Of a DNA stretch of 56,557 bases, positions 6,031 through 40,227 are shown in pieces. The translations under genes and the position numbers were made by a program. How positions within the stretch are numbered: position 1 is the stretch's first letter; every line of letters begins with the position of its first letter. The notes beneath the pieces were generated by a model that was not told where the DNA came from, ran no database searches, and saw only the letters and a list, made by a program, of their open reading frames with translations. This DNA comes from a virus (lineage: Duplodnaviria; Caudoviricetes), in IMG/VR virus record IMGVR_UViG_3300034109_000654, positions 1 through 56,557 of that record; one strand, given 5' to 3'.

Positions 6031-6303
6031 GTGTGCGGTGTCCTTTCCATCCGGGCCCGGGTGATTCCCTGACCTTCACACTCATAATACCTATTTTTAT
6101 AGGCATTATCTAGTGCTCGGGCGGGGCAGAACGGAGCAATACCGAAAGGTTCTGAGAGCCTCTGTGCGATTCCTGGGGGCGAGGGGCTGTCCAGAACCAC
6201 CCTGGGCGATGGAACGGGGCTCTCGGGGCCACACAGAGCCAGTACGAGGGGTTCCGGTGGGGTAGACTCAGGGCACTATCGTGGTTGGTAGTGCGGCATC
6301 AAG

Positions 6304-6343
6304 ACAGAAAGACCCGGCAGCGTCAGCTGCCGGGTCTTTCTGT
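6304..6343. terminator. Bidirectional intrinsic terminator
   Basis: Perfect 18-bp inverted repeat acagaaagacccggcagc-gtca-gctgccgggtctttctgt downstream of the replication operon. Confidence 0.85.
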
Positions 6344-6390
6344 TGCCGGGGTTCCTGCCGTCAGGGGAGCGGCAGGCCGGACGCCCTAGC

Positions 6391-6882
6391 CTAGGCCAGA
6401 CCGAGCTCGGCCATGACCTCGTGCCCGCGAGCGATCTCCTCGGGGGTCGGAGCGGCCAGGATGTACGGGGCGTTCTTGCCCGGCGAGGCGTTACCCAGCG
6501 CCAGGCGACCGAGCACCCATTCCTGCGGCCCGCGCAGGACGGTCTTGAATCCCCGGATCAGCGCGGACCCGAACACCAGCAGGTCGTCGGCCCGCTCGTT
6601 CTCGTTGTCCAGCCGGATCACATCGACCCGGCAGAACTCGCTCTCCGGGCTGATGCGGGTCGCCATCACGTCGACCTCGATGGGGTGCACCAGCAACAGT
6701 TCCCCGACGAAGTCGGTGAACTTGTAGTCACCGCCCCCGCTGGACGGCAGCGCGAACGGGTCTCCGGTGCGCGGTGCCGGTACGGGGTCGCCGTCACCGT
6801 TGGCCGCGGCCAGGCCGCCGCGTGCCTTGGTGGCGGTGGCGCCAGTGGTTTTCTTCTGGTTGTCAAACGGGTTACCGGCCAC
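6391..6882 (-). CDS. Hypothetical replication/recombination-associated protein (possibly ssDNA-binding)
   Basis: GAGGAG RBS; directly follows the exonuclease. Function inferred from position only. Confidence 0.6.
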   Translation of the reverse strand: MAGNPFDNQKKTTGATATKARGGLAAANGDGDPVPAPRTGDPFALPSSGGGDYKFTDFVGELLLVHPIEVDVMATRISPESEFCRVDVIRLDNENERADDLLVFGSALIRGFKTVLRGPQEWVLGRLALGNASPGKNAPYILAAPTPEEIARGHEVMAELGLA

Positions 6883-6884
6883 GG

Positions 6885-8030
6885 TTAGTTCTCCTCGTTG
6901 GTAGTGGCGGGGGTGAGAAGCTCGATACAGGTCGTACCGAGCCCGGTGAGGTCGTCATCCCAGACTTCCTCGTACTGCTCGAAGATCGCGGCGGCATCGC
7001 TGCGGTCCTCGATGTTCAGGAGCGCCTGTCGGGCTTCGACATAGCGCACGGTCGCCGGAGTCGGCGCGGGGTGGTCGGCGGCGAGAGCCTTGGCCTTGAT
7101 CTCCTTGCGCCGGGACCGGACGTCGATGGCCAGTTGCATCCCCTCGCCGCCGCAGTAGAGGTCGAAGGGGATCACCTCGGCACGCTCGGGCTGGTCGGAG
7201 GGCAGGTGCACGACCACGCAGTAGTCCTGGTTGATCTTCGGCATGTCCGACCACGTCAGGCCGTCGAGATTGAGCATCTTGGTGGCGTATCCGTAGACGG
7301 CGAACTGGATGGCGAACTTCACCGTCGAGGAGTCGAAGCTCGTCGACTTCGAGGTCTTGAGGTCGCCCAGGATCAGCTCGCCGGTATCGACCACCCGGTA
7401 GATGCGGTCGATCCGACCGGCGATGGACTCCTGACCCCGGTCGTTGAGGACCACCCGCTCGGTGTACTCCGGCACCGCCACCAGACCCGCCTGGGTCAGC
7501 GCCTTGTGGTAGCTCTCGGCATACGGCTTGACGAGATCGGGCAACTGGTGGAACAGGATGCGGCCCATGTCGAGCTCGGCGAGCCAGTCGTGGACGCAGG
7601 TGCCGAGCTCCTTGGCATCCGCACCGCCGGCCAGGTCGTGAATCATGTCGATGATGCCGTTGATGTCGGTGGACTTGGCCTCGTTGCGGACTGCGCTCTC
7701 GTAGGAGCGGAAGGCTGCGGCCAGGGCCAGCTCGGTGTCGGTCATCGAGTCGTTGGCGGTGATCGCCAACTGCTGGGCGTAGAGCACCGACGAGACCTTT
7801 TCGCGGATCTTCCAGCTCATCAGGTTCGACTCGTCGGAGATCGTGTCGGCCAGCTTGGTCGCCCGGGTGTAGGTCGTCTTGCGGCCTGTGGTGGGCGAGG
7901 GCAACTGGTAACGCTGCCAGCGGTCGGTCTGGATGGTGACCTCCTCGCGGGGCACCAGCGGCGGTAACGGGTACCGCATGTACTCGGTGTACCGGGCGGC
8001 AGGGGAACCGCCGGGGACCATTTCATGCAC
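6885..8030 (-). CDS. PD-(D/E)XK (RecB/Cas4-like) exonuclease
   Basis: LGTCVH, AGRIDRIY, GDLKT, QFAVY motifs. Confidence 0.85.
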   Translation of the reverse strand: MHEMVPGGSPAARYTEYMRYPLPPLVPREEVTIQTDRWQRYQLPSPTTGRKTTYTRATKLADTISDESNLMSWKIREKVSSVLYAQQLAITANDSMTDTELALAAAFRSYESAVRNEAKSTDINGIIDMIHDLAGGADAKELGTCVHDWLAELDMGRILFHQLPDLVKPYAESYHKALTQAGLVAVPEYTERVVLNDRGQESIAGRIDRIYRVVDTGELILGDLKTSKSTSFDSSTVKFAIQFAVYGYATKMLNLDGLTWSDMPKINQDYCVVVHLPSDQPERAEVIPFDLYCGGEGMQLAIDVRSRRKEIKAKALAADHPAPTPATVRYVEARQALLNIEDRSDAAAIFEQYEEVWDDDLTGLGTTCIELLTPATTNEEN

Positions 8031-28469: not shown

Positions 28470-28858
28470 GTCGGCTCCTTCGGGTTGGTGGTCGCACGCC
28501 GCACCCCGGCATCGGACCGGGGCCGCTCACGCGACCTGAGGGAACTCCCCTCGCAGAGGGCTCGGAGATGAGGCCGAGCCCTCGGCCAGGGTCCGGGGCG
28601 ATGAGTCCCCGGACTCCCGCCGCCGCCCTTGGGTGGTGTTCCACAGACACCACAGGCCAGCGGTTTTGCAGGCATCCACTATGTAAATTCTCAAACTTCA
28701 CTCAACTGCTTACCCCTTTAGATTACCGTTCCCCTCAACCATGCACCACCCCCCGGTTCGGAGTCCTCGCCTCCGCAATTTTTTGCTGCCGGATGGATTT
28801 GATACTTACCCTTTAGAATAGCCCCGGCTCTGCCGCCGGAACACCTACCGTGGTCGGA

Positions 28859-29452
28859 GTGACCACCACGCCATTCGACAAGCCGACAGTCGATGACATC
28901 GCCAACTCCACACCGGCTTCTGACGAGTCCCTCTGGGAGCGCAGGATGCGCGCGGTCACCATGCGGAACGCTGGCAGGACTTATCAGCAGATCGCCGAGG
29001 CCCTAACCAACGCCGGCACCCCCATCTCGGTCTCCCAGGTCCGCAAGGATGTGGCCAAGGCATACAAGGAGATCATCGGGGAGGCCCGCGACGACATGAT
29101 CGCCCGGCAGCGCAGTGTGCTGTTCGACTTTCAGAGGGCCAACTACCTCGATGCCATCAACACCGACCCTGATCGCACCGATGAGCGTGCCACCGCCCAG
29201 AAGCTGATCCTCTCGGCGATGGACCACGAGGCCAAGCTGTTCGGTCTGTACTCACCGCAGCGGGTCAGCCTGGGCATCAGTGACACCGAGTTCGCCGAGG
29301 AGACCGCCAGGCTCATTTCGGAGCTTGGGTTGCAGCCACCCAAGGAGTTGCTGCTCGGCCGGGAGCGCCAGGAGGAAGCGGTCGACGCCGAGGTGGTCGA
29401 GGCGGTGGAGGCCGCACCCGTCGAACGTGTACCGGACTGGTCAAACATCTGA
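28859..29452 (+). CDS. terS: Terminase small subunit (HTH type)
   Basis: RRMRAVTMRNAGRTYQQIAEAL HTH; C-terminal AKLFGLYSP; first rightward gene after the divergent promoter region. Confidence 0.7.
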   Translation: MTTTPFDKPTVDDIANSTPASDESLWERRMRAVTMRNAGRTYQQIAEALTNAGTPISVSQVRKDVAKAYKEIIGEARDDMIARQRSVLFDFQRANYLDAINTDPDRTDERATAQKLILSAMDHEAKLFGLYSPQRVSLGISDTEFAEETARLISELGLQPPKELLLGRERQEEAVDAEVVEAVEAAPVERVPDWSNI

Positions 29453-32422: not shown

Positions 32423-33121
32423 ATGGCCTCACAGCAGCTACCTGCGCCCAACACCATGACCAGTGTTCAGCCGATGGGCCTGTCGACGTATCACCGCAAC
32501 GCCCGGCGCGGCAACGTCGATGCGATCGTCGGAAGCCTCAAAGCGAATGGGCAGTACAAGCCCATCGTGGTCAACATCGGCACGCACACCGGACGGCCCA
32601 ACGAGGTCCTCGCCGGAAACCACACCCTGATGGCGTTCCGCAATCTGGCCGAGATGTATCCCACCGACGAACGATGGAACGAGATTCAGGTCTACTGGGT
32701 CGATGTCGACGACGACCGCGCCACCCGCATCGTGCTGGCCGACAACCGCACCGCCGAGGACTCGACCTACGACGATGTGATGCTCTACGACCTCATCAAG
32801 AGCCTGGGCGATGACCTGGACGGCTCCGGGTTCACCGACACCGACGTGGACAAGCTCAGCTACCTGGACAAGATGTTCAGCCCCGACGACGGCGACGACG
32901 GCCCCGACGGCTACGACACCACCGACAACGAGACCGTGGTGATCGACGTCGGCAAGGTCCCCCCGGTCTGCGCCGAGGTCGGCGTGGTGGTGGGACGGAT
33001 CAGGTTCAAGATGGCGCGGGACCTGTATGTGTCGTGGTACGACGAGCTCCGCGAGCAGGTCGGGTACGACGACGAGGCGCTGTCCAGCGCCGTCCAGCAG
33101 CGGCTCGGAATGATCCAGTGA
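32423..33121 (+). CDS. ParB/Srx N-terminal domain protein
   Basis: YHRNARRGNVDAIVGSLKANGQYKPIVV...VLAGNHTLMA...IVLADNRT; acidic C-terminal linker. Confidence 0.9.
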   Translation: MASQQLPAPNTMTSVQPMGLSTYHRNARRGNVDAIVGSLKANGQYKPIVVNIGTHTGRPNEVLAGNHTLMAFRNLAEMYPTDERWNEIQVYWVDVDDDRATRIVLADNRTAEDSTYDDVMLYDLIKSLGDDLDGSGFTDTDVDKLSYLDKMFSPDDGDDGPDGYDTTDNETVVIDVGKVPPVCAEVGVVVGRIRFKMARDLYVSWYDELREQVGYDDEALSSAVQQRLGMIQ

Positions 33122-34650
33122 TCCTCAAGGTCGTGTCCACCGAGGACATTCGCCCCTCCACCTACAACCCCCGCCAGGCCGACCCCGAACGCCTCGAGCT
33201 GGTCAAGCTGTCGCTGTCCAAGCTGGGCTGGCTGCTGCCGATCTACGCCGACGCGGGCGGGGAGATCCTGTCCGGCCACCAGCGCCACTACGTCGCCACC
33301 GAGATGATGGGCATGACCGAGGTGCCCGTCGCCTACACCAAGGCCATGACCCTGCCGCAGCGCAAGGCCATCAACATCGCGTTCAACCGTGGCACCAACG
33401 ACATGGAGTCCCACACGCTGACCGGCACCCTGGCCGAGGCGATCAAGAGCTCTGGCGTGGTGGAGATGGCGGCGGCGCTGCCCGACGCCACCGGGACCAT
33501 GCCCATCCTCGACGCCCGCCAGGAGCCCATCGGCCCGATCCTCAAGGCCAACAAGGGCCGGTGGAGCCGTCACGCCAAGAACGTCAGCCGGATGCTGATT
33601 CACCGGGGCGTGGAGATGCCGGTGATCGTCGACGAGGACAACCGGGTCATCAACGGCATCGGCCGGCTCGAGCAGTACGCGATCCTGAAATACACCACCA
33701 TCGACGTGCTCCGGCTGCCCAACAACGTCGCCAAGGTCGCCGAGGTGATGCTCAATCTGCTCACGATGGACTTCGACCTGCACCGCCGCTATTCCGACGA
33801 ACTGCGCTACAACAGCTTCCGGCGGGCCTACACCACCCGCAAGCAGCTCGGTGTCGGCATGACCTTCGCCGCGGTCAACTCCAACCGGCGCATGGAGTTC
33901 GACATCCTCAACCCGACGCACGCCAGTGGCTGGAAGAAGGTCTACGGGGACCGGATTCTGGACTTCGGCGCCGGGCATCTGTGGGAGACCGAGATGCTCC
34001 GCAAGGCCGGATGCACCGTCAGCCCGTTCGAGCCCTACCACGTCGGCCAGGGCGGTCAGATCGACAAGCAGAAGTCCCTGGCGCTGACCGATGCGTTCCT
34101 GCGCGACGTGGCCGGCGGGGTGGACTGGGACTCGATCTTCCTGTCCTCGGTGCTCAACTCGGTGCCGTTCGAGGCCGACCGGTTCCACATCGTGCAGCTG
34201 CTCAACGCGCTGGCCCAGCCGACCGAGACCCATCCTGAGGGCGCGGCGGTGTACGCGGTGGCGCTCTCGACGGCCAACGACTCCTGGCGGGACAACACCG
34301 CTCAGAAAACCGGGCTGAACAAGACCCACTACGACCGGCCCAGCTTCCGGCTGGACCACGAGCCAGGCGTGAGCCTGGCCGACTTTCTCGAGGTCCCGAA
34401 GATTCAGAAGTACCACTCGATGCCGGAGTTCCGGGCGCTGTTCGCCAGCGGGTTCGGCAAGGCTCAGACCAACCATGTGGGAACCAACTGCCAGGGCGTG
34501 TTCCGCGACCCGCTGCCGGTGGACCCGGCCAAGCTGGCGGCGGCTATCGACTTCGAGTTCGAGCTGCCCTATCCCGACGGGACACACATGGAGCGGTCAC
34601 GTCAGGCCAGGGCGGCGTTTGAGCAGCGGCTGGGAATGACGCTGCCCTAG
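33118..34650 (+). CDS. Fusion of two ParB-like domains and a class I SAM-dependent (amino-type) methyltransferase domain
   Basis: ParB-1 IRPSTYNPRQ...LPIY...ILSGHQR; ParB-2 EMPVIVDEDNRVINGIGRL; MTase motif I ILDFGAG, FEPY, motif-IV-like IFLSSVLNSVP; no PC motif; GTGA-coupled to the upstream ParB gene. Confidence 0.8.
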   Translation: MILKVVSTEDIRPSTYNPRQADPERLELVKLSLSKLGWLLPIYADAGGEILSGHQRHYVATEMMGMTEVPVAYTKAMTLPQRKAINIAFNRGTNDMESHTLTGTLAEAIKSSGVVEMAAALPDATGTMPILDARQEPIGPILKANKGRWSRHAKNVSRMLIHRGVEMPVIVDEDNRVINGIGRLEQYAILKYTTIDVLRLPNNVAKVAEVMLNLLTMDFDLHRRYSDELRYNSFRRAYTTRKQLGVGMTFAAVNSNRRMEFDILNPTHASGWKKVYGDRILDFGAGHLWETEMLRKAGCTVSPFEPYHVGQGGQIDKQKSLALTDAFLRDVAGGVDWDSIFLSSVLNSVPFEADRFHIVQLLNALAQPTETHPEGAAVYAVALSTANDSWRDNTAQKTGLNKTHYDRPSFRLDHEPGVSLADFLEVPKIQKYHSMPEFRALFASGFGKAQTNHVGTNCQGVFRDPLPVDPAKLAAAIDFEFELPYPDGTHMERSRQARAAFEQRLGMTLP

Positions 34651-35165
34651 CTGGGCAGGCTGAACGGCAGGTTGGCCTCGGCAGCGAAGCTGCGGGTGGG
34701 TTCGTAGGCGCTGAACTCCGGCAGCTTGCGCCAGTAGCTCTCGCGGGGGACAGGCTGGGAGTCGATGCCGTACTCGAGGTACATCGCCCGGGTACGCGGG
34801 TTGGATTCCAGGCCGAACCACAGTTCCTCGGCGTTGGGTTCCCCGTACTTGTCCACGATGCGGCGCAGGTTGTCATGCTTCTTGTGGTGCGGCATCCCGT
34901 CAGGGGTCTGGGAGAAGAAGGCGTCGTCGGGCTCCCAGTCCAGTTGATCCTTGATCCGCGCCAGAGTGGCCTCCATCGCCGATTCCGGCCGGGCGGTGGT
35001 GATGACCACGGTGGCCTCGTTGCGGGCCAGCAGCTTGGGAATCCAGGCCCGATAGGTCTCCTGCGGTATCCGCACGCTCAGAGGCCGTTTGTCGTTGTAG
35101 AGCACCTTGGCGAGCGTGAAGTTCAGGTCGAGTAGGGCGAACATAGGTGTGACGACTCCCATCAA
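34647..35165 (-). CDS. HAD-superfamily (PNKP-phosphatase-like) protein with altered catalytic motifs
   Basis: LLDLNFTL (motif I), ITTARPE (II), K (III), GLESNPRTRAMY (IV). Start is uncertain (possibly 35144). Confidence 0.7.
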   Translation of the reverse strand: MMGVVTPMFALLDLNFTLAKVLYNDKRPLSVRIPQETYRAWIPKLLARNEATVVITTARPESAMEATLARIKDQLDWEPDDAFFSQTPDGMPHHKKHDNLRRIVDKYGEPNAEELWFGLESNPRTRAMYLEYGIDSQPVPRESYWRKLPEFSAYEPTRSFAAEANLPFSLPS

Positions 35166-35247
35166 AAGGCATACTTGTCTAAGTATTATACCATATAACG
35201 CCAGGTCACAGCCTCATTTGCAGGGTCAATGCCTACAGTTGTCGGGT

Positions 35248-35967
35248 ATGACACAGGACATTGCGGAGAGCTTCTCACCCGGTGGCTGGAAGTTCACCGC
35301 TGAGGTCACCGACGTGTTCGACGAACATGTCTCCGCGTCGGTCCCGTATTACCCGCTGATTCAGAACATCGTCGCCGAAGCAGCCGACTGGTTGCTCCCC
35401 GATGGTGGGGTCTACGTCGATGTCGGAGCCTCCACCGGAACCACCGCGGCTGCCATCGCCAGACGCCATCCCGACCGCCATATTCGGACGTACCTCTACG
35501 ACGAGGTGCCCGAGATGCTGGACAAGGCGATGGTGAAGCTGGCCGGGTTCGACAACCTCAAGGTGGAGCGCCGGCACAAGAACGTCCTGGCCGGAATGGA
35601 TCACAGCCCGTCCGATCTGGTGACCGCGCTGTTCACCTTGCAGTTCATCGCCCCGGAGAACAGGCCCAAGGTTCTCAACGAGCTGCGCCGCCGAGCCAAG
35701 CCCACCGGAGCGATCATCGTGGCCGAGAAGATCAGGCCGATTCACCCGATGTGGGCTGAGATCGCCATTGACGCCTCACACGACTTCAAGGCCGACCACG
35801 GCCTGTCCGACACCGCGATCCGGCAGAAGGCCAAGGCACTGCGCGGGGTTCTGCGGCCCTCCACCGAAGCGGCCCTGCGGTTCAGCCTTGAGGAGGCTGG
35901 GTGGTGCAATCCGGAGATTCTGTTCCGGTGGCATCAGTGGGTGGTGGTCGGAGCACTGGCCTCGTAG
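35248..35967 (+). CDS. CmoA-like (carboxy-SAM synthase family) SAM-dependent enzyme
   Basis: WKFTAEVTDVFDEHVSASVPYY, DVGASTG, LFTLQFI, GAIIVAEK, FKADHGLSDTAIRQK..L.GVL match the CmoA pattern as I recall it ([54 protein letters not shown]). Confidence 0.8.
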   Translation: MTQDIAESFSPGGWKFTAEVTDVFDEHVSASVPYYPLIQNIVAEAADWLLPDGGVYVDVGASTGTTAAAIARRHPDRHIRTYLYDEVPEMLDKAMVKLAGFDNLKVERRHKNVLAGMDHSPSDLVTALFTLQFIAPENRPKVLNELRRRAKPTGAIIVAEKIRPIHPMWAEIAIDASHDFKADHGLSDTAIRQKAKALRGVLRPSTEAALRFSLEEAGWCNPEILFRWHQWVVVGALAS

Positions 35968-37072
35968 CCTCTGCACCCGCAGTACATGTAGCAGGTGGTT
36001 CCGTAGGAGTGCAGCCCGAAGGGGTGGCCGCACTCGCACGGCGGCAGTTTGCCGACCTCCCAGCGGTCCACCATCTCCTCGGGAGTCAGGTGCCCTGTCC
36101 TGCCCTGGCGGCTGTGGCCGCGTGTGCCCTTGCCGTCCTCGCGGGGCGGCAGCTGTGACCACGTCGGGTCGTGCTTGACCGGGCAGCCGCACCACCCGCC
36201 GTCGTGGTTGATGAAGATGCTGTAGCTGGCGTCCACGAAACCGCAGCGCAGACACACGTCGGCCCCACCCGGGCGGTCGGGCAGACCCAGGCTCTCAACG
36301 AACTCAGCTTTCATGCGGTTCCACTCGCGCTGCTGGCGCTTCCAGCGTTCGTCCTGGGTCTCCCACAGCCCGAGCTGTTCGGGTTCAGTCATAGTAGTGC
36401 TCGCAGCTTTCGCTGTGCACCATGTGCAACCCGTGCTCGTCCTCCCAGACGTGGTTCCATGCCTCGCAGGTGCAGGTCATCGTCTGTTCCACCAATCCAT
36501 GAACGCGGCACCGACAAACCCGCCGATACCTGCCGACAGGTACGGCATCCACCAAGAGCAGTCACTCATCGCGGCCACCTCCCCGATAGGTCATGGCGTA
36601 GCTGACGATCCCCTGGGCGTCCCTGTTCAACTTCTGCATAGCCTCGTAGGCCGTTTCTTTATGCAGAGGATCGTGGAAGTCAATACCCACTAGTTCCGAC
36701 TGTGCGTAACCCTGAATCGCCCCCAGTAAGGCCGCCCCGATGTCCGCGATCACCGCGTCGGCCACGTCATAAGGCGAGAACTCCACGCGCCCATCCCGCC
36801 GTTTGGACAGCTTCTCCACAACAGCGGCGGCGATCCGCTCACGGAGGTCACTCATTGACAATCTCCCAATCCGTCACATGGCGGCGCACACGTTGATCCG
36901 GCTTTCCGTTGATGATGCGTTTCGCCAGGTGTGTTTGCAGCCCTAGTTCTTGGATCACCGCGTCGGCCAGTAGCCAAGCGCACTCCCGGTTGATGTAGTC
37001 ACCGTCGAGGACAACCTCTTTGGAAGAAAGGATGGCGGCGATGCGGGTGCGGAGGTCACTCATCGCGGCCAC
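35934..37072 (-). CDS. Small leftward ORFs (35934-36392 Cys-rich, 36562-36861, 36848-37072, plus two micro-ORFs at about 36385-36570)
   Basis: Coupled overlaps; 36562 and 36848 share the start MSDLR(E/T)RIAA and ADAVI. Confidence 0.6.
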
Positions 37073-37530
37073 CAGTCCGGTGCCGGCCGATTGCGCCAGG
37101 TGGCGAATCGGGCCTTCTCAGCCACATAGAAACGGCGGTAGGCCGTCACCGGGTCGGGGTGGTGGTACTGCTCGGGCATGGCCTGGGGGACGTCGGTGAA
37201 GCCCCGTGATGACAGGAACGGTGGCGGGCAGGCCAGTGCGGGCAGCAATCGGGCTGAACCGTGGGTTTTGCCGTAGCGGTGCTTGTACTCGGCGCACAGG
37301 GCAGCGAACAGCCGCCATGCCCAACGATAGTTGGACACTGACTCTCCGGCCCACACGGTGCAGGGGTGGTTCTTGTGGGTGGCCCGGTAGAGCACGTCGC
37401 CGTCGTAGCCGTGCTGGCGGTGCACGGTGGAGAGCATCTGCGCTTCCTCGATGACCATTTTCAGGACGTGCTTGTCGCAGTGCATCTGCGCGGCAACGAG
37501 GGGGTCGGGATGCAGGATGAAGCGGTTCAC
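37060..37530 (-). CDS. Pyrimidine-dimer DNA glycosylase (DenV/endonuclease V-like) family protein
   Basis: NRFILHPDPLVAAQMHCDKHVLKMVIEEAQMLST, YRATHKNHPC, EYKHRYGKTH, PQAMP, AYRRFY. Confidence 0.75.
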   Translation of the reverse strand: MNRFILHPDPLVAAQMHCDKHVLKMVIEEAQMLSTVHRQHGYDGDVLYRATHKNHPCTVWAGESVSNYRWAWRLFAALCAEYKHRYGKTHGSARLLPALACPPPFLSSRGFTDVPQAMPEQYHHPDPVTAYRRFYVAEKARFATWRNRPAPDWWPR

Positions 37531-38420: not shown

Positions 38421-38511
38421 AGTGGCTCCTTTCCGGGTGTCGTCCCAGGTAATAACACTTTCTGTAATAGGTATTTTACCAGAATGCCGGTAGCACACCT
38501 AACCTTTGCGT

Positions 38512-40227
38512 ATGCAAATAACGGCCTCTGATATTTACAACGAGGACGGCACGTTCTCCTCCGAGCGCGCCGCCAAGGTTTACGAGCAGGCGCGGCAATG
38601 GCCGCCGGAGCAGAAGATCGCCGCCCTCAAGTGGCTCGAGTCCGCGGTTCAGCGCGACCGCATCCGCAGCCGCTACTCCAACGCCGCCGAGCTCGCTCAG
38701 GCCGTGGACCCCGACTTCGTGATAACCCCGGCCCTGAAACTGATCGCTGACGCCATCGAGACCGTCCTGGCCAAGCCTCGCCACAACCTGCTCATCACGA
38801 CACCTCCGCAGGAGGGCAAGTCGACGATGTGCGCGGTGTGGGCTCCGATCCGGGCCTGGCAGCTCAACCCCAATCGCCGGGTGATCCTGTCCTCCTACGG
38901 CGACGACCTGGCCCGCACCCATTCCACCAACTGCCGCAGCGTCATCGAGTCGCACGGCTCCGACGTGTTCGACCCGCTGACCGGAGCGCGGGTCGAGGAC
39001 AAGCTGGGACTCAAGATCAGCACCAAGTCCCGGCGCATCGACGCCTGGAAGATCGAGGGTGCCCGCGGCGGCATGGTCGCCGTCGGCCTGGGATCGGCGA
39101 TCACCGGCCGCGCCGCAGACCTGTTCATCATCGACGACCCGTACAAGAACATGCAGGAGGCCGACTCCATGACCCACCGCGAGAAGGTGGACATGTGGAT
39201 GAGTTCGGTGGCCCTGACCCGCCTGTCGCCGGAAGCCTCGATCATTCTGGTTCAGACTCGCTGGCACCCCGAGGACCTGGCGGGTAAGACCATCGCCGCC
39301 GAGGCCGAGCTGCCCCGCGATCAGCGGACCTGGCGCTACATCAACATTCCGGCCATCAGCGAGGAAGGTGTCTACGACTCGCTGAACCGGCCGCCGGGTA
39401 AGGCGATGATCTCCGCGCGTGGCCGCACCAGGGCAGAGTTCGATGCCACCCGCCGCCAGGTCGGCGAGCGGGTCTGGTACGCGCTGTACCAGGGGATGCC
39501 GACCAACCCTGCCGGCGGTCTGTTCGAGCGTGCCTGGTTCGATCCTCGCGTCAAGTCCACCGATGTCATTCAGCCGGTCGCCGCCGTGGTGGGCATCGAC
39601 CCCGCCGATTCCGGCGAGGGTGACGAGACCGGCATCATCGGCGGCGTGCTGCAGCCAGACGGCACCGTGGTCCTCACCGAGGACTGGTCGGGACTGCACA
39701 CCGCCGAGCAGTGGGCACGCAAAGCGGTCGATCTCGCGCTGACCATCGGCGCCCGAGAGATCGCTATGGAGGGCTATGCCACGTTCCGCACCTACGAGGC
39801 GGTAATTCGGCGCTCCTACCAGGAAGCCCACCGAGAAGCGCGAGAGGCGCTGGCCGAGGGCAAGGAACTGACGGCACTGCAACTCAACGCGCTCTCACCC
39901 TCCCAGCCGTTCATCATCTCCAAGTACACCGAGGCCGGTGATCCGGTGGGCCGCGCCGCCGCGCTGCGCCAGGCGCTGGAACTCAAGCGAGCACGGGTCG
40001 TCGAGTACAAGCTGGGCGTGTTCGAGGACCAGGCCGCGGACTGGCAGGCCGGTCAGCACTGCCCTGATCGGGTGGCGGCAGCGGTGATCTGCCACTGGCG
40101 GCTGTCCCGTCTGGGGTCGGGTCAGACCGACTACGCAGCCCCTCTGCACGGCACCGCCAGACCCGCTCCGGACTGGCTGACCCGGAAGGTGAGCGGCTCG
40201 CCCTCGTTACCAGTACGAAGCCGTTAG
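38512..40227 (+). CDS. terL: Terminase large subunit
   Basis: PPQEGKS, ITGRAADLFIIDDPYKN, QTRWHPEDL, ALYQGMP, VGIDPA, PDRVAA. Confidence 0.95.
   Translation: MQITASDIYNEDGTFSSERAAKVYEQARQWPPEQKIAALKWLESAVQRDRIRSRYSNAAELAQAVDPDFVITPALKLIADAIETVLAKPRHNLLITTPPQEGKSTMCAVWAPIRAWQLNPNRRVILSSYGDDLARTHSTNCRSVIESHGSDVFDPLTGARVEDKLGLKISTKSRRIDAWKIEGARGGMVAVGLGSAITGRAADLFIIDDPYKNMQEADSMTHREKVDMWMSSVALTRLSPEASIILVQTRWHPEDLAGKTIAAEAELPRDQRTWRYINIPAISEEGVYDSLNRPPGKAMISARGRTRAEFDATRRQVGERVWYALYQGMPTNPAGGLFERAWFDPRVKSTDVIQPVAAVVGIDPADSGEGDETGIIGGVLQPDGTVVLTEDWSGLHTAEQWARKAVDLALTIGAREIAMEGYATFRTYEAVIRRSYQEAHREAREALAEGKELTALQLNALSPSQPFIISKYTEAGDPVGRAAALRQALELKRARVVEYKLGVFEDQAADWQAGQHCPDRVAAAVICHWRLSRLGSGQTDYAAPLHGTARPAPDWLTRKVSGSPSLPVRSR

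Follow-up and report, generated by a model that had tools for sequence, protein, structure and literature searches.

The viral DNA analysed here (IMG/VR virus record IMGVR_UViG_3300034109_000654, positions 1 to 56,557; Duplodnaviria, Caudoviricetes), whose whole length of 56.6 kb is referred to as the window, carries a cassette of four adjacent genes for a stand-alone ParB protein, a fusion of two ParB domains with a class I methyltransferase (MTase) domain (ParB-MT), a HAD-like protein and a CmoA-like protein. Based on the conserved linkage of these genes and on a comparison with loci in which CmoA is paired with the C5-MTase CmoX, we propose, with a probability of about 0.5, that the cassette is a phage DNA-modification system dependent on carboxy-S-adenosylmethionine (Cx-SAM), in a sister arrangement to CmoA-CmoX(-CmoY). 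Use of Cx-SAM by the ParB-fused transferase appears well founded on comparative grounds. A wider reading, that the cassette represents a second, widespread route by which DNA is carboxymethylated in nature, in which a ParB-tethered small-molecule-type MTase would use phage-made Cx-SAM at a non-C5 position with the HAD-like protein assisting, is put forward more tentatively; the acceptor in such a route could, with the same reserve, be an exocyclic amine, a ring nitrogen or oxygen, or even the backbone.

DNA carboxymethylation was demonstrated as a natural process only in 2025, for cytosine C5 alone, in a study whose preliminary search returned no CmoA-linked candidates for N6-adenine or N4-cytosine carboxymethyltransferases (Yang et al., Nat Commun 2025, PMC12783734, Discussion). 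The cassette supplies a candidate of a kind absent from that work, a CmoA-linked non-C5 carboxymethyltransferase. If the wider reading is true, no carboxymethyl DNA mark outside cytosine C5 would have been known in nature before this one, and the transferase would stand for a new class of DNA-alkylating enzymes; the route would extend over phages and prophages from at least 10 bacterial phyla, and such a new charged mark would bear on restriction evasion, virome sequencing artefacts and tools for site-specific DNA functionalisation. In the accessible literature we found no description of the CmoA/ParB-MT pairing, although neighbours of this sort, or a ParB-Methyltransf_23 protein that has been tested, may be listed in the supplements of Yang et al. 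and of a survey of ParB proteins (PMC12704722). The papers listed in our literature search held no N6- or N4-carboxymethyl bases on phage DNA, and the search found no report of DNA modification in Samunavirus, SM1 or Evaa.

Conservation of the cassette

The loci scanned were those of the best 80 of 261 viral matches to ParB-MT together with the best 80 of 149 from a set containing one genome per species. Open reading frames (ORFs) were labelled with purpose-built hidden Markov models, and a locus with at least 1.6 kb of downstream sequence was taken to have room for judgement. ParB-MT was present in 164 loci, 143 of them with room. All four genes occurred together in 132 of these 143, a CmoA-like gene lay within 4.5 kb of the fusion in 139, and when the fusion was clustered at 70% identity, pairing with a CmoA-like gene was seen in 19 of 19 clusters. 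The adjacency of the four genes is far beyond chance, and the co-occurrence across genomes that a first-pass annotation of the window, made from the DNA letters alone, had looked to is borne out by these counts. The family is abundant as well: clustering at 50% identity gives 257 representatives at E ≤ 1e-30, at least 807 relatives are found at E ≤ 1e-5 (44-55% identity, many phyla), and there are the 261 viral loci and the 149 one-genome-per-species stretches. Named hosts include Alpha- and Gammaproteobacteria, Cyanobacteria, Verrucomicrobiota, Planctomycetota, Chloroflexota, Bacteroidota, Rhodothermota and others.

The position next to the terminase, to which the first-pass annotation had drawn attention, recurs in other phages. 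In Gordonia phage Evaa the same cassette genes are found as genes 1-5, directly ahead of the terminase. Pseudomonas SM1-like phages carry ParB, the fusion and the CmoA-like gene without a HAD gene, followed by a weak terL match, and Aeromonas phage HJ05 has the SM1-type arrangement, again with a weak terL match. One locus without a CmoA-like gene (L113) runs from the cassette directly into terS-terL-portal, with strong PHROG matches for both terS and terL. Since Evaa, the SM1-like phages and HJ05 are culturable carriers, the chemistry should be readable by nucleoside mass spectrometry.

The genomes of Evaa, SM1 and HJ05, all complete, gave no PF00145 (C5-MTase) match. Seven C5-MTases of ParB-MT loci were aligned: six are full-length, lie about 3 kb upstream and have the ordinary PCQ and GN, not SPPC and GR, and the seventh, at another place in its locus, is a partial ORF with GN; an eighth, of L116, stands outside the alignment. 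The six ordinary enzymes (YPCQ, GN; about 4600-5700 in L011, L012, L015, L090, L093 and L097) include several from alphaproteobacterial bins, and phages of the C5-MTase-bearing loci may carry two DNA marks.

ParB-MT in the position of CmoX

The window CmoA-like protein is 55.6% identical to the CmoA of the CmoX/ligase cluster of Streptomyces phage TurkishDelight. When viral contigs were scanned with an alignment (A5) of the closest relatives of the window protein, 22 new loci were returned, compared with 2 for the single window protein. The order was ParB, then C5-MTase, then CmoA in 20 of the 22, the other two being cut by contig ends. An Asn-synthase-like ligase was present in 13 of the 22; in loci with the whole cluster it adjoins the C5-MTase, usually between the C5-MTase and CmoA. 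Neither a ParB-MT fusion nor a HAD-like gene was seen in any of the 22. Both signatures that define CmoX, SPPC and Arg350 (Yang et al., PMC12783734), were found in 21 of 21 C5-MTases, those of 20 new loci and gp123 of TurkishDelight.

The window, Evaa and locus L010 share the order ParB - ParB-MT - HAD - CmoA. In a maximum-likelihood tree their CmoAs form a clade (support 100/99) among CmoX-linked CmoAs, the exact sister being more weakly supported (82/95). Placing the ParB-MT label on this tree takes at least three changes on well-supported branches, which argues that CmoA lineages were recruited or exchanged repeatedly. The slot between ParB and CmoA is thus filled either by CmoX, with or without the ligase, or by ParB-MT together with the HAD-like gene. 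Because ParB-MT holds the slot of a proven consumer type, it is the best candidate for the Cx-SAM consumer, and the suggestion of the first-pass annotation to this effect gains support from the close relatives. No alternative consumer (C5-MTase, CmoB or ligase) was found in the window: targeted family searches gave no match to PF00145, PF01555, PF08003 (CmoB) or PF00733 (ligase), and ARAGORN detected 0 tRNA genes, in line with the earlier remark that neither CmoB nor a full tRNA is visible.

The closest known counterpart is the 5-carboxymethylcytosine system CmoA-CmoX-CmoY of Synechococcus phage S-B43, with which the cassette shares a phage CmoA of the same sequence peculiarities. A ParB-domain gene often adjoins CmoX systems too, and in actinophages they occupy the same slot upstream of the terminase. 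The window differs from these systems in having no C5-MTase (PF00145, SPPC Cys, Arg350) and no AMP-forming ligase, and in carrying the ParB-ParB-Methyltransf_23-like fusion and an added DxNxT HAD-like gene.

The CmoA-like protein

The top NCBIfam family for the CmoA-like protein is TIGR00740 (CmoA), at 104.5 bits, under the curated cut-off of 193.3. SpCmoA of phage S-B43, which has been shown to make Cx-SAM (PMC12783734), is under the cut-off as well (115.6 bits), and this suggests that the threshold is too strict for phage members. The alignment with E. coli CmoA (4gek) is full-length (residues 12-230, E 2.5e-18). Conserved in the window protein are Y39, D62, G64, S66, D89, the FTLQF motif, the E164-K pair and K198, whereas E. 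coli N90, D117, N132 and R199 are not. The N132 column, within 'LFTLQF', holds Leu in both the window protein and SpCmoA. Arg199 is given, in the accessible part of Byrne et al. (2013), as the defining CmoA residue, which salt-bridges the carboxylate; its column holds Ala in the window protein (KAKALRG) and Glu in SpCmoA (KEKELRD), both with an Arg four residues later, and K-x-K-x-L-R stands in both where E. coli has K-R199. As verified SpCmoA has the same deviations, those of the window protein fit a phage type of CmoA and not a loss of function. Keeping the family assignment and the SpCmoA-like pattern in mind, we regard the protein, in agreement with the first-pass annotation, as most likely a true carboxy-SAM synthase, making Cx-SAM from SAM and prephenate.

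Among 129 unique cassette-linked CmoA-like proteins, 61 have the classical K-R199...E203, 15 have the SpCmoA-like pattern and 48 are without Arg at 199 and 203. This last, divergent class, with KELSL[GS]G, Asp at the E164 column, Met at the Q136 column and a very long branch, is found in L011, L013, L017, L020, L050, L098, L122, L125 and their relatives, and from its sequence may make a different SAM derivative.

Like the CmoA/CmoB pathway of tRNA cmo5U in E. coli, the cassette encodes a putative Cx-SAM synthase beside a class I transferase; it differs in that no CmoB family member (PF08003) and no tRNA are present and the transferase is fused to ParB.

Domain structure of ParB-MT

The fusion is covered over its whole length by phrog_5475, a family with no function assigned in PHROGs. 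In an alignment of 32 fusion sequences (A1), the invariant segments are PSTYNPR, GHQR and FNRGTND in ParB domain 1, NGIGRL in ParB domain 2, RYNSFRR, DFGAGH (motif I) and FEP (motif II) in or near the MTase domain and, further C-terminal, SVLNSVPF..DR (motif IV position), PK.QKYH and FEF..PYP.G. R230, R235 and R236 of the RYNSFRR segment are kept in 32 of 32 sequences. In the window, DFGAG lies at 33961-33975, FEPY at 34027-34038 and SSVLNSVPF at 34144-34170, and KIQKYH and FEFELPYPDG are also present; for DFGAG, SSVLNSVPF and RYNSFRR these are the places given by the first-pass annotation.

ParB domain 1 is recognised by both PHROGs and Pfam and matches Noc/ParB structures: across the ParB proteins of the cassette, ParB families of PHROGs match at E 1e-25 to 1e-58, and the fusion-family profile finds Noc and Spo0J in the PDB at 1e-5 to 5e-4. 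Residues 125-216 (domain 2) are homologous to domain 1 (hhalign probability 91.7%, E 7.9e-7). Both ParB domains are real, the second being a degenerate copy. By fold and by its Box I/II/III-like motifs the fusion belongs to the ParB/Srx (CTPase-fold) class, with binding of a nucleoside triphosphate (NTP) being putative. Inteins usually occupy functionally critical sites, and the 891-residue family member P0292 has an intein-like insert of about 340 residues, ending in ...THN|S, within FNR-(G/A)-TND of ParB domain 1, so this motif is probably essential.

A Pfam scan of the 32 family members found ParB_N (PF02195) in 30 and Methyltransf_23 in 25 (best E 1.6e-4), with otherwise two chance-level matches; the Methyltransf_23 match of the window fusion itself is weak (E 0.0045). 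The AlphaFold2 (AF2) model of the fusion has a predicted local distance difference test score (pLDDT) of 88.3 and a predicted template-modelling score (pTM) of 0.84. In a Foldseek comparison of this model with the PDB, the N-terminal part matched Noc/ParB, and also SerK and sulfiredoxin, and the C-terminal part matched glycine N-methyltransferase (1kia, E 9.5e-4), archaeal small MTases, AzeJ and the vaccinia cap N7-methyltransferase; the nearest PDB folds to the MTase domain are 1kia, 1wzn, 1ve3, 3hnr and 8rye. No DNA amino-MTase or C5-MTase was among the listed top Foldseek matches, and the ESM Atlas neighbours of the domain are all of the Methyltransf_23/11/TehB type. Sequence and profile searches of PDB sequences matched the ParB part alone.

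The first-pass annotation had called the domain an amino-MTase, a label that these results do not uphold, as the domain is Methyltransf_23-like with small-molecule and cap MTase folds, and the motif IV position reads NSVPF, not (D/N/S)PP(Y/F/W). Amino-MTase families were likewise not found: PF01555 is absent from the window, and PF02384, MT-A70 and Dam are absent from all-Pfam scans of the window and of the 32 family members, scans that included no dedicated search for these three. The accompanying statement that the fusion has no catalytic PC is correct, as there is no PF00145 in the window and there are no C5-MTase motifs in the fusion; none of the CmoX signatures (PF00145 fold, SPPC, Arg350) was found in it.

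A specific CmoB-like origin of the MTase domain was rejected, as the hhalign probability to E. coli CmoB is 13.5% and covers the generic motif I-IV region alone; against the CmoA alignment the probability is 7.2%, again with generic Rossmann similarity alone. In the same low-probability CmoB alignment (13.5%), the invariant N347 of the fusion falls in the column of CmoB Tyr200, a residue that contacts the carboxylate (PMC10491745) and, with K91 and R315, belongs to the residues by which CmoB binds Cx-SAM. The invariant NSVPF loop, standing at both the amino-MTase motif IV site and the CmoB Tyr200 site, may be taken as a lead and not as a classification.

The stand-alone ParB and its relation to ParB-MT

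The stand-alone ParB matches phrog_6392, 'ParB-like partition protein', and gave no match to Pfam ParB_N at E ≤ 0.01. Its N-terminal 135 residues share 50% identity with the ParB found in one of the CmoX clusters (L176), and the C-terminal ~75 residues, which the L176 protein does not have, are specific to the cassette (family alignment A4). Box II reads GNHT, where the family consensus is GHxR; the AGNHT form was seen in the stand-alone ParB of the window, of L001 (1-699) and of L010 (4646-5338), and in the CmoX-cluster ParB of L176 (5038-5577). With this reading the protein is without the Box II Arg that binds NTP in canonical ParB.

A conserved ...RLG(L/I/M) tail ends both the stand-alone ParB (QQRLGMIQ, 33100-33121) and ParB-MT (EQRLGMTLP, 34630-34650; alignments A1 and A4), and may be a shared docking peptide. 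A natural 706-residue protein, P0299, joins the stand-alone ParB to an entire ParB-MT fusion. Complex prediction for the pair gave a score of 0.41 (best control 0.00), with contact agreement between runs of at least 52% and partner pLDDT of at least 71. Among solved complexes 58 of 80 reach the mark applied, and among mismatches 2 of 110; scores of 0.60 or below that reach it comprise 7 of the 80 solved complexes but both passing mismatches, so that the prediction lends the pair weak support. The pass could also stem from the likeness of the model to solved ParB dimers.

In resemblance to other ParB-assisted phage enzymes (ParB-fused N6_N4 MTases; 5mYOX176), a ParB/CTPase-fold module is fused to or placed beside a putative DNA-modifying enzyme; from the accessible parts of the two sources (PMC12704722, PMC13229309), a phage ParB is reported to activate the thymine dioxygenase 5mYOX176 on double-stranded DNA (PMC13229309), and ParB-Methyltransf_23 fusions are enriched in phages and have no assigned chemistry (PMC12704722). 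The fusions of the survey, as far as its accessible part goes, are not linked to CmoA or Cx-SAM, and the window differs in having two ParB domains in the fusion and a third ParB protein.

The HAD-like protein

The AF2 model of the HAD-like protein (pLDDT 86.8) has as its top Foldseek matches MDP-1 (2wm8, 3e-4), Pnkp1 (4xru, 3.5e-4), HisB-N and T4 PNK, with probability 1.00; its likeness to capless HAD phosphatases amounts to template-modelling scores of 0.52-0.61 at E 3e-4 to 2e-3. The family profile found no sequence-level relative in the PDB. On its modelled Rossmannoid fold, the protein is classed as a capless HAD. With MDP-1, Pnkp1, T4 PNK and HisB-N it shares the fold, the nucleophile Asp, the Thr of motif II (TARP) and the Lys. 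It differs from them at D+2 and in motif IV: the window protein has LLDLNFT as motif I, i.e. DxNxT with Asn at D+2, followed by TARP, the conserved Lys and ESNP, and among 135 unique family members D-L-N-x-T occurs in 132, D-L-H-x-T in 2 and the DxDxT of HAD phosphatases in none, while E-S-N replaces the usual acidic motif IV. The D+2 Asp of HAD phosphatases is the general acid/base. With Asn in its place, the protein would therefore have a restricted substrate or an accessory role; as a guess, it is either limited to good leaving groups (anhydrides, acyl phosphates) or a phosphate-binding accessory.

A dehalogenase-like reading, prompted by the S-x-N motif of L-2-haloacid dehalogenases, was dropped, as phosphatases lead the Foldseek matches, with no dehalogenase or epoxide-hydrolase member ahead of rank 27 (E > 0.02). 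Four loci of Opitutales/Puniceicoccaceae (L161, L162, L164 and L169, about 6866-7350) have a HAD-like gene upstream of ParB, which is a second copy in L161, L162 and L169, and in L164 replaces the post-fusion copy. Over-long HAD/CmoA ORFs in the GC-rich loci L031, L108, L118, L139, L152 and L154 are probably stop-to-stop over-extensions, not fusions.

Proposed mechanism and alternatives

In the mechanism that we propose, the CmoA-like protein would turn SAM and prephenate into carboxy-SAM, as homology and context suggest, and the Methyltransf_23-like domain would use it to carboxymethylate phage DNA after replication, a step suggested by slot replacement and strict linkage, with an acceptor that would not be cytosine C5 by the classical Cys mechanism. 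Delivery of the enzyme to double-stranded DNA, or its activation there, may fall to the fused ParB/CTPase-fold domain together with the stand-alone ParB, judging from the domain content, the natural fusion and the analogy with the ParB-activated thymine dioxygenase. The HAD-like protein, with Asn replacing the general acid/base Asp, would be an accessory, possibly acting on a nucleic-acid or nucleotide phosphate. As with other phage DNA marks, the mark would likely protect phage DNA from host nucleases. The first-pass annotation had named N6-carboxymethyl-adenine or N4-carboxymethyl-cytosine as the product; these are guesses that the analysis does not support, since evidence for the amino-MTase class is missing from Pfam, Foldseek and motif IV. 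The enzyme fold and cofactor of phage Mu Mom are unrelated to the fold and the proposed cofactor of the window fusion, and no Mom homologue was seen here, although no search was aimed at one. The Mom product, N6-carbamoylmethyl-adenine, would be close (a two-carbon acid or amide on N6) only if the acceptor here were adenine N6 (accessible part of PMC7261163).

Several points weigh against a Cx-SAM-dependent DNA-modification system. The case for Cx-SAM use by the fusion comes entirely from context: its MTase domain has no specific similarity to CmoB (hhalign 13.5%) or CmoX, and no carboxylate-binding residue could be located in it; the carboxylate contact that the first-pass annotation had suggested for the Arg-rich segment ahead of motif I (RYNSFRR) is putative. 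The loci sampled were those most similar to the query. Of 143 loci, 4 are without the CmoA-like gene and 5 without the HAD-like gene, so the cassette does not strictly depend on either. R199, which is taken to define CmoA, is Ala in the window protein, and the 48 of 129 CmoA-like proteins without Arg at either column could make something else. Since nucleotides, too, are bound by ParB-fold domains, which are also found in kinases, DNA is a likely but putative substrate.

The alternative that survives best, unlikely as we consider it, is that ParB-MT is an ordinary SAM-dependent DNA MTase and that the CmoA-like protein serves otherwise, either as a SAM drain or by flooding the cell with Cx-SAM against host SAM-dependent defences. 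A class I fold of generic type, in which no Cx-SAM determinant can be recognised, and the 4 of 143 loci in which the fusion lacks a CmoA-like gene would fit this, the accessible part of the ParB survey classes ParB-Methyltransf_23 fusions simply as predicted DNA methyltransferases (PMC12704722), and CmoA-mediated SAM depletion was raised as a question by Yang et al. (PMC12783734). However, linkage in 139 of 143 loci and replacement in the CmoX slot are hard to explain if the enzymes are functionally unrelated, and a SAM-draining enzyme would counteract the SAM-using enzyme adjoining it.

Somewhat less probable again is a transferase that carboxymethylates a target other than DNA, such as a nucleotide in the ParB/CTPase-fold pocket, RNA or a phage protein, with the HAD-like protein processing a phosphorylated product. 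Its nearest solved folds are indeed small-molecule and cap-nucleotide MTases, ParB-fold proteins bind CTP, ATP and GTP and include kinases (accessible part of PMC12704722; SerK and sulfiredoxin among the Foldseek matches), and the phosphatase-like partner is kept in 134 of 143 loci with room. Yet the slot is otherwise filled by the DNA enzyme CmoX, the stand-alone ParB is present in both kinds of cluster, the window has no tRNA gene, and Evaa is without annotated nucleotide-metabolism genes of the sort needed for pre-replicative base replacement. That the CmoA-like protein is no Cx-SAM synthase at all, so that a plain methyltransferase or another SAM derivative would leave no carboxymethylation, is the least probable alternative, as the sub-threshold TIGR00740 score, the unconserved R199, N132, N90 and D117 and the 48 of 129 homologs that lack both candidate Arg residues are set against a verified SpCmoA that deviates alike and misses the cut-off too, closest relatives adjoining C5-MTases with the Cx-SAM-binding Arg350, and 61 of 129 homologs with the classical K-R199...E203.

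Genomic context

The window has a G+C content of about 65% and an estimated completeness of 83%, and all 24 of the listed sequencing-run holders are contigs of lake and freshwater metagenomes, none from RNA. All four genes described in the first-pass annotation (ParB, coupled double-ParB/MTase, HAD, CmoA-like) are present as ORFs at its coordinates (Table 1). The GTG start of the fusion overlaps the stop of the stand-alone ParB as GTGA, so that the two genes are coupled, as had been noted. The HAD-like gene, whose place on the minus strand is not mentioned in the first-pass annotation, is convergent with the fusion gene, their stop codons overlapping as CTAG, and the divergent spacer between the HAD-like and CmoA-like genes, AT-rich by eye, is a presumed promoter region.

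Table 1. Features of the cassette and its terminase context in the window
Feature	Position	Strand	Basis
Stand-alone ParB N-domain protein, 232 aa	32423..33121	+	phrog_6392 E 6e-58
ParB - degenerate ParB - class I methyltransferase fusion (ParB-MT), 510 aa	33118..34650	+	phrog_5475 E 1e-89
ParB/CTPase-fold domain 1 of fusion (PSTYNPR, SGHQRH, AFNRGTND)	33118..33453	+	Invariant A1 columns; PDB profile matches
ParB-like domain 2 of fusion, degenerate (INGIGRLE)	33490..33765	+	hhalign against domain 1
Arg-rich RYNSFRR segment of fusion	33805..33825	+	About 46 residues ahead of motif I; invariant
Methyltransf_23-like class I MTase domain of fusion	33850..34647	+	Weak Pfam match; Foldseek; ESM Atlas
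Capless HAD-like protein, 172 aa	34647..35165	-	phrog_32036 E 2e-19
Divergent intergenic region HAD-like/CmoA-like, 82 bp	35166..35247	.	Sequence read directly
CmoA-type carboxy-SAM synthase candidate, 239 aa	35248..35967	+	TIGR00740 E 7e-30
Large terminase subunit terL (context, outside cassette)	38506..40227	+	PF03237 2.9e-11; phrog_38 3e-92

The claim that the four genes lie between terS and terL holds for the genes and for terL, with minus-strand genes spanning the roughly 2.5 kb between terL and the cassette, and does not hold for terS, as none was identified in the window. A 200-residue helix-turn-helix protein at 28850-29452 (+), which matches phrog_645, labelled 'Rnase E' (E 2e-43), may be what had been read as terS. 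At a distance of 1.1 kb from the cassette, a 153-residue protein at 37060-37521 (-) matches phrog_624, 'DNA binding protein' (E 7e-56), and, weakly, PF03013, the family of pyrimidine-dimer DNA glycosylases (E 0.004).

DAHP synthase (3-deoxy-D-arabino-heptulosonate 7-phosphate synthase) is the first enzyme of the shikimate pathway, upstream of prephenate. In phage HJ05 (L006) a gene for it (6257-7420; PF00793, E 1e-49) follows the cassette and the weak terL match. Its role as a prephenate supply was set aside as anecdotal, as the gene occurs in 213 phage records, most of which are outside the CmoA hit list and belong to phages of Escherichia, Klebsiella and Shigella that are about 170 kb long. 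Another gene of this HJ05 region, at 7554-7904, has a product in which an Acb2/Tad1 hairpin domain is recognised (E 8.5e-17).

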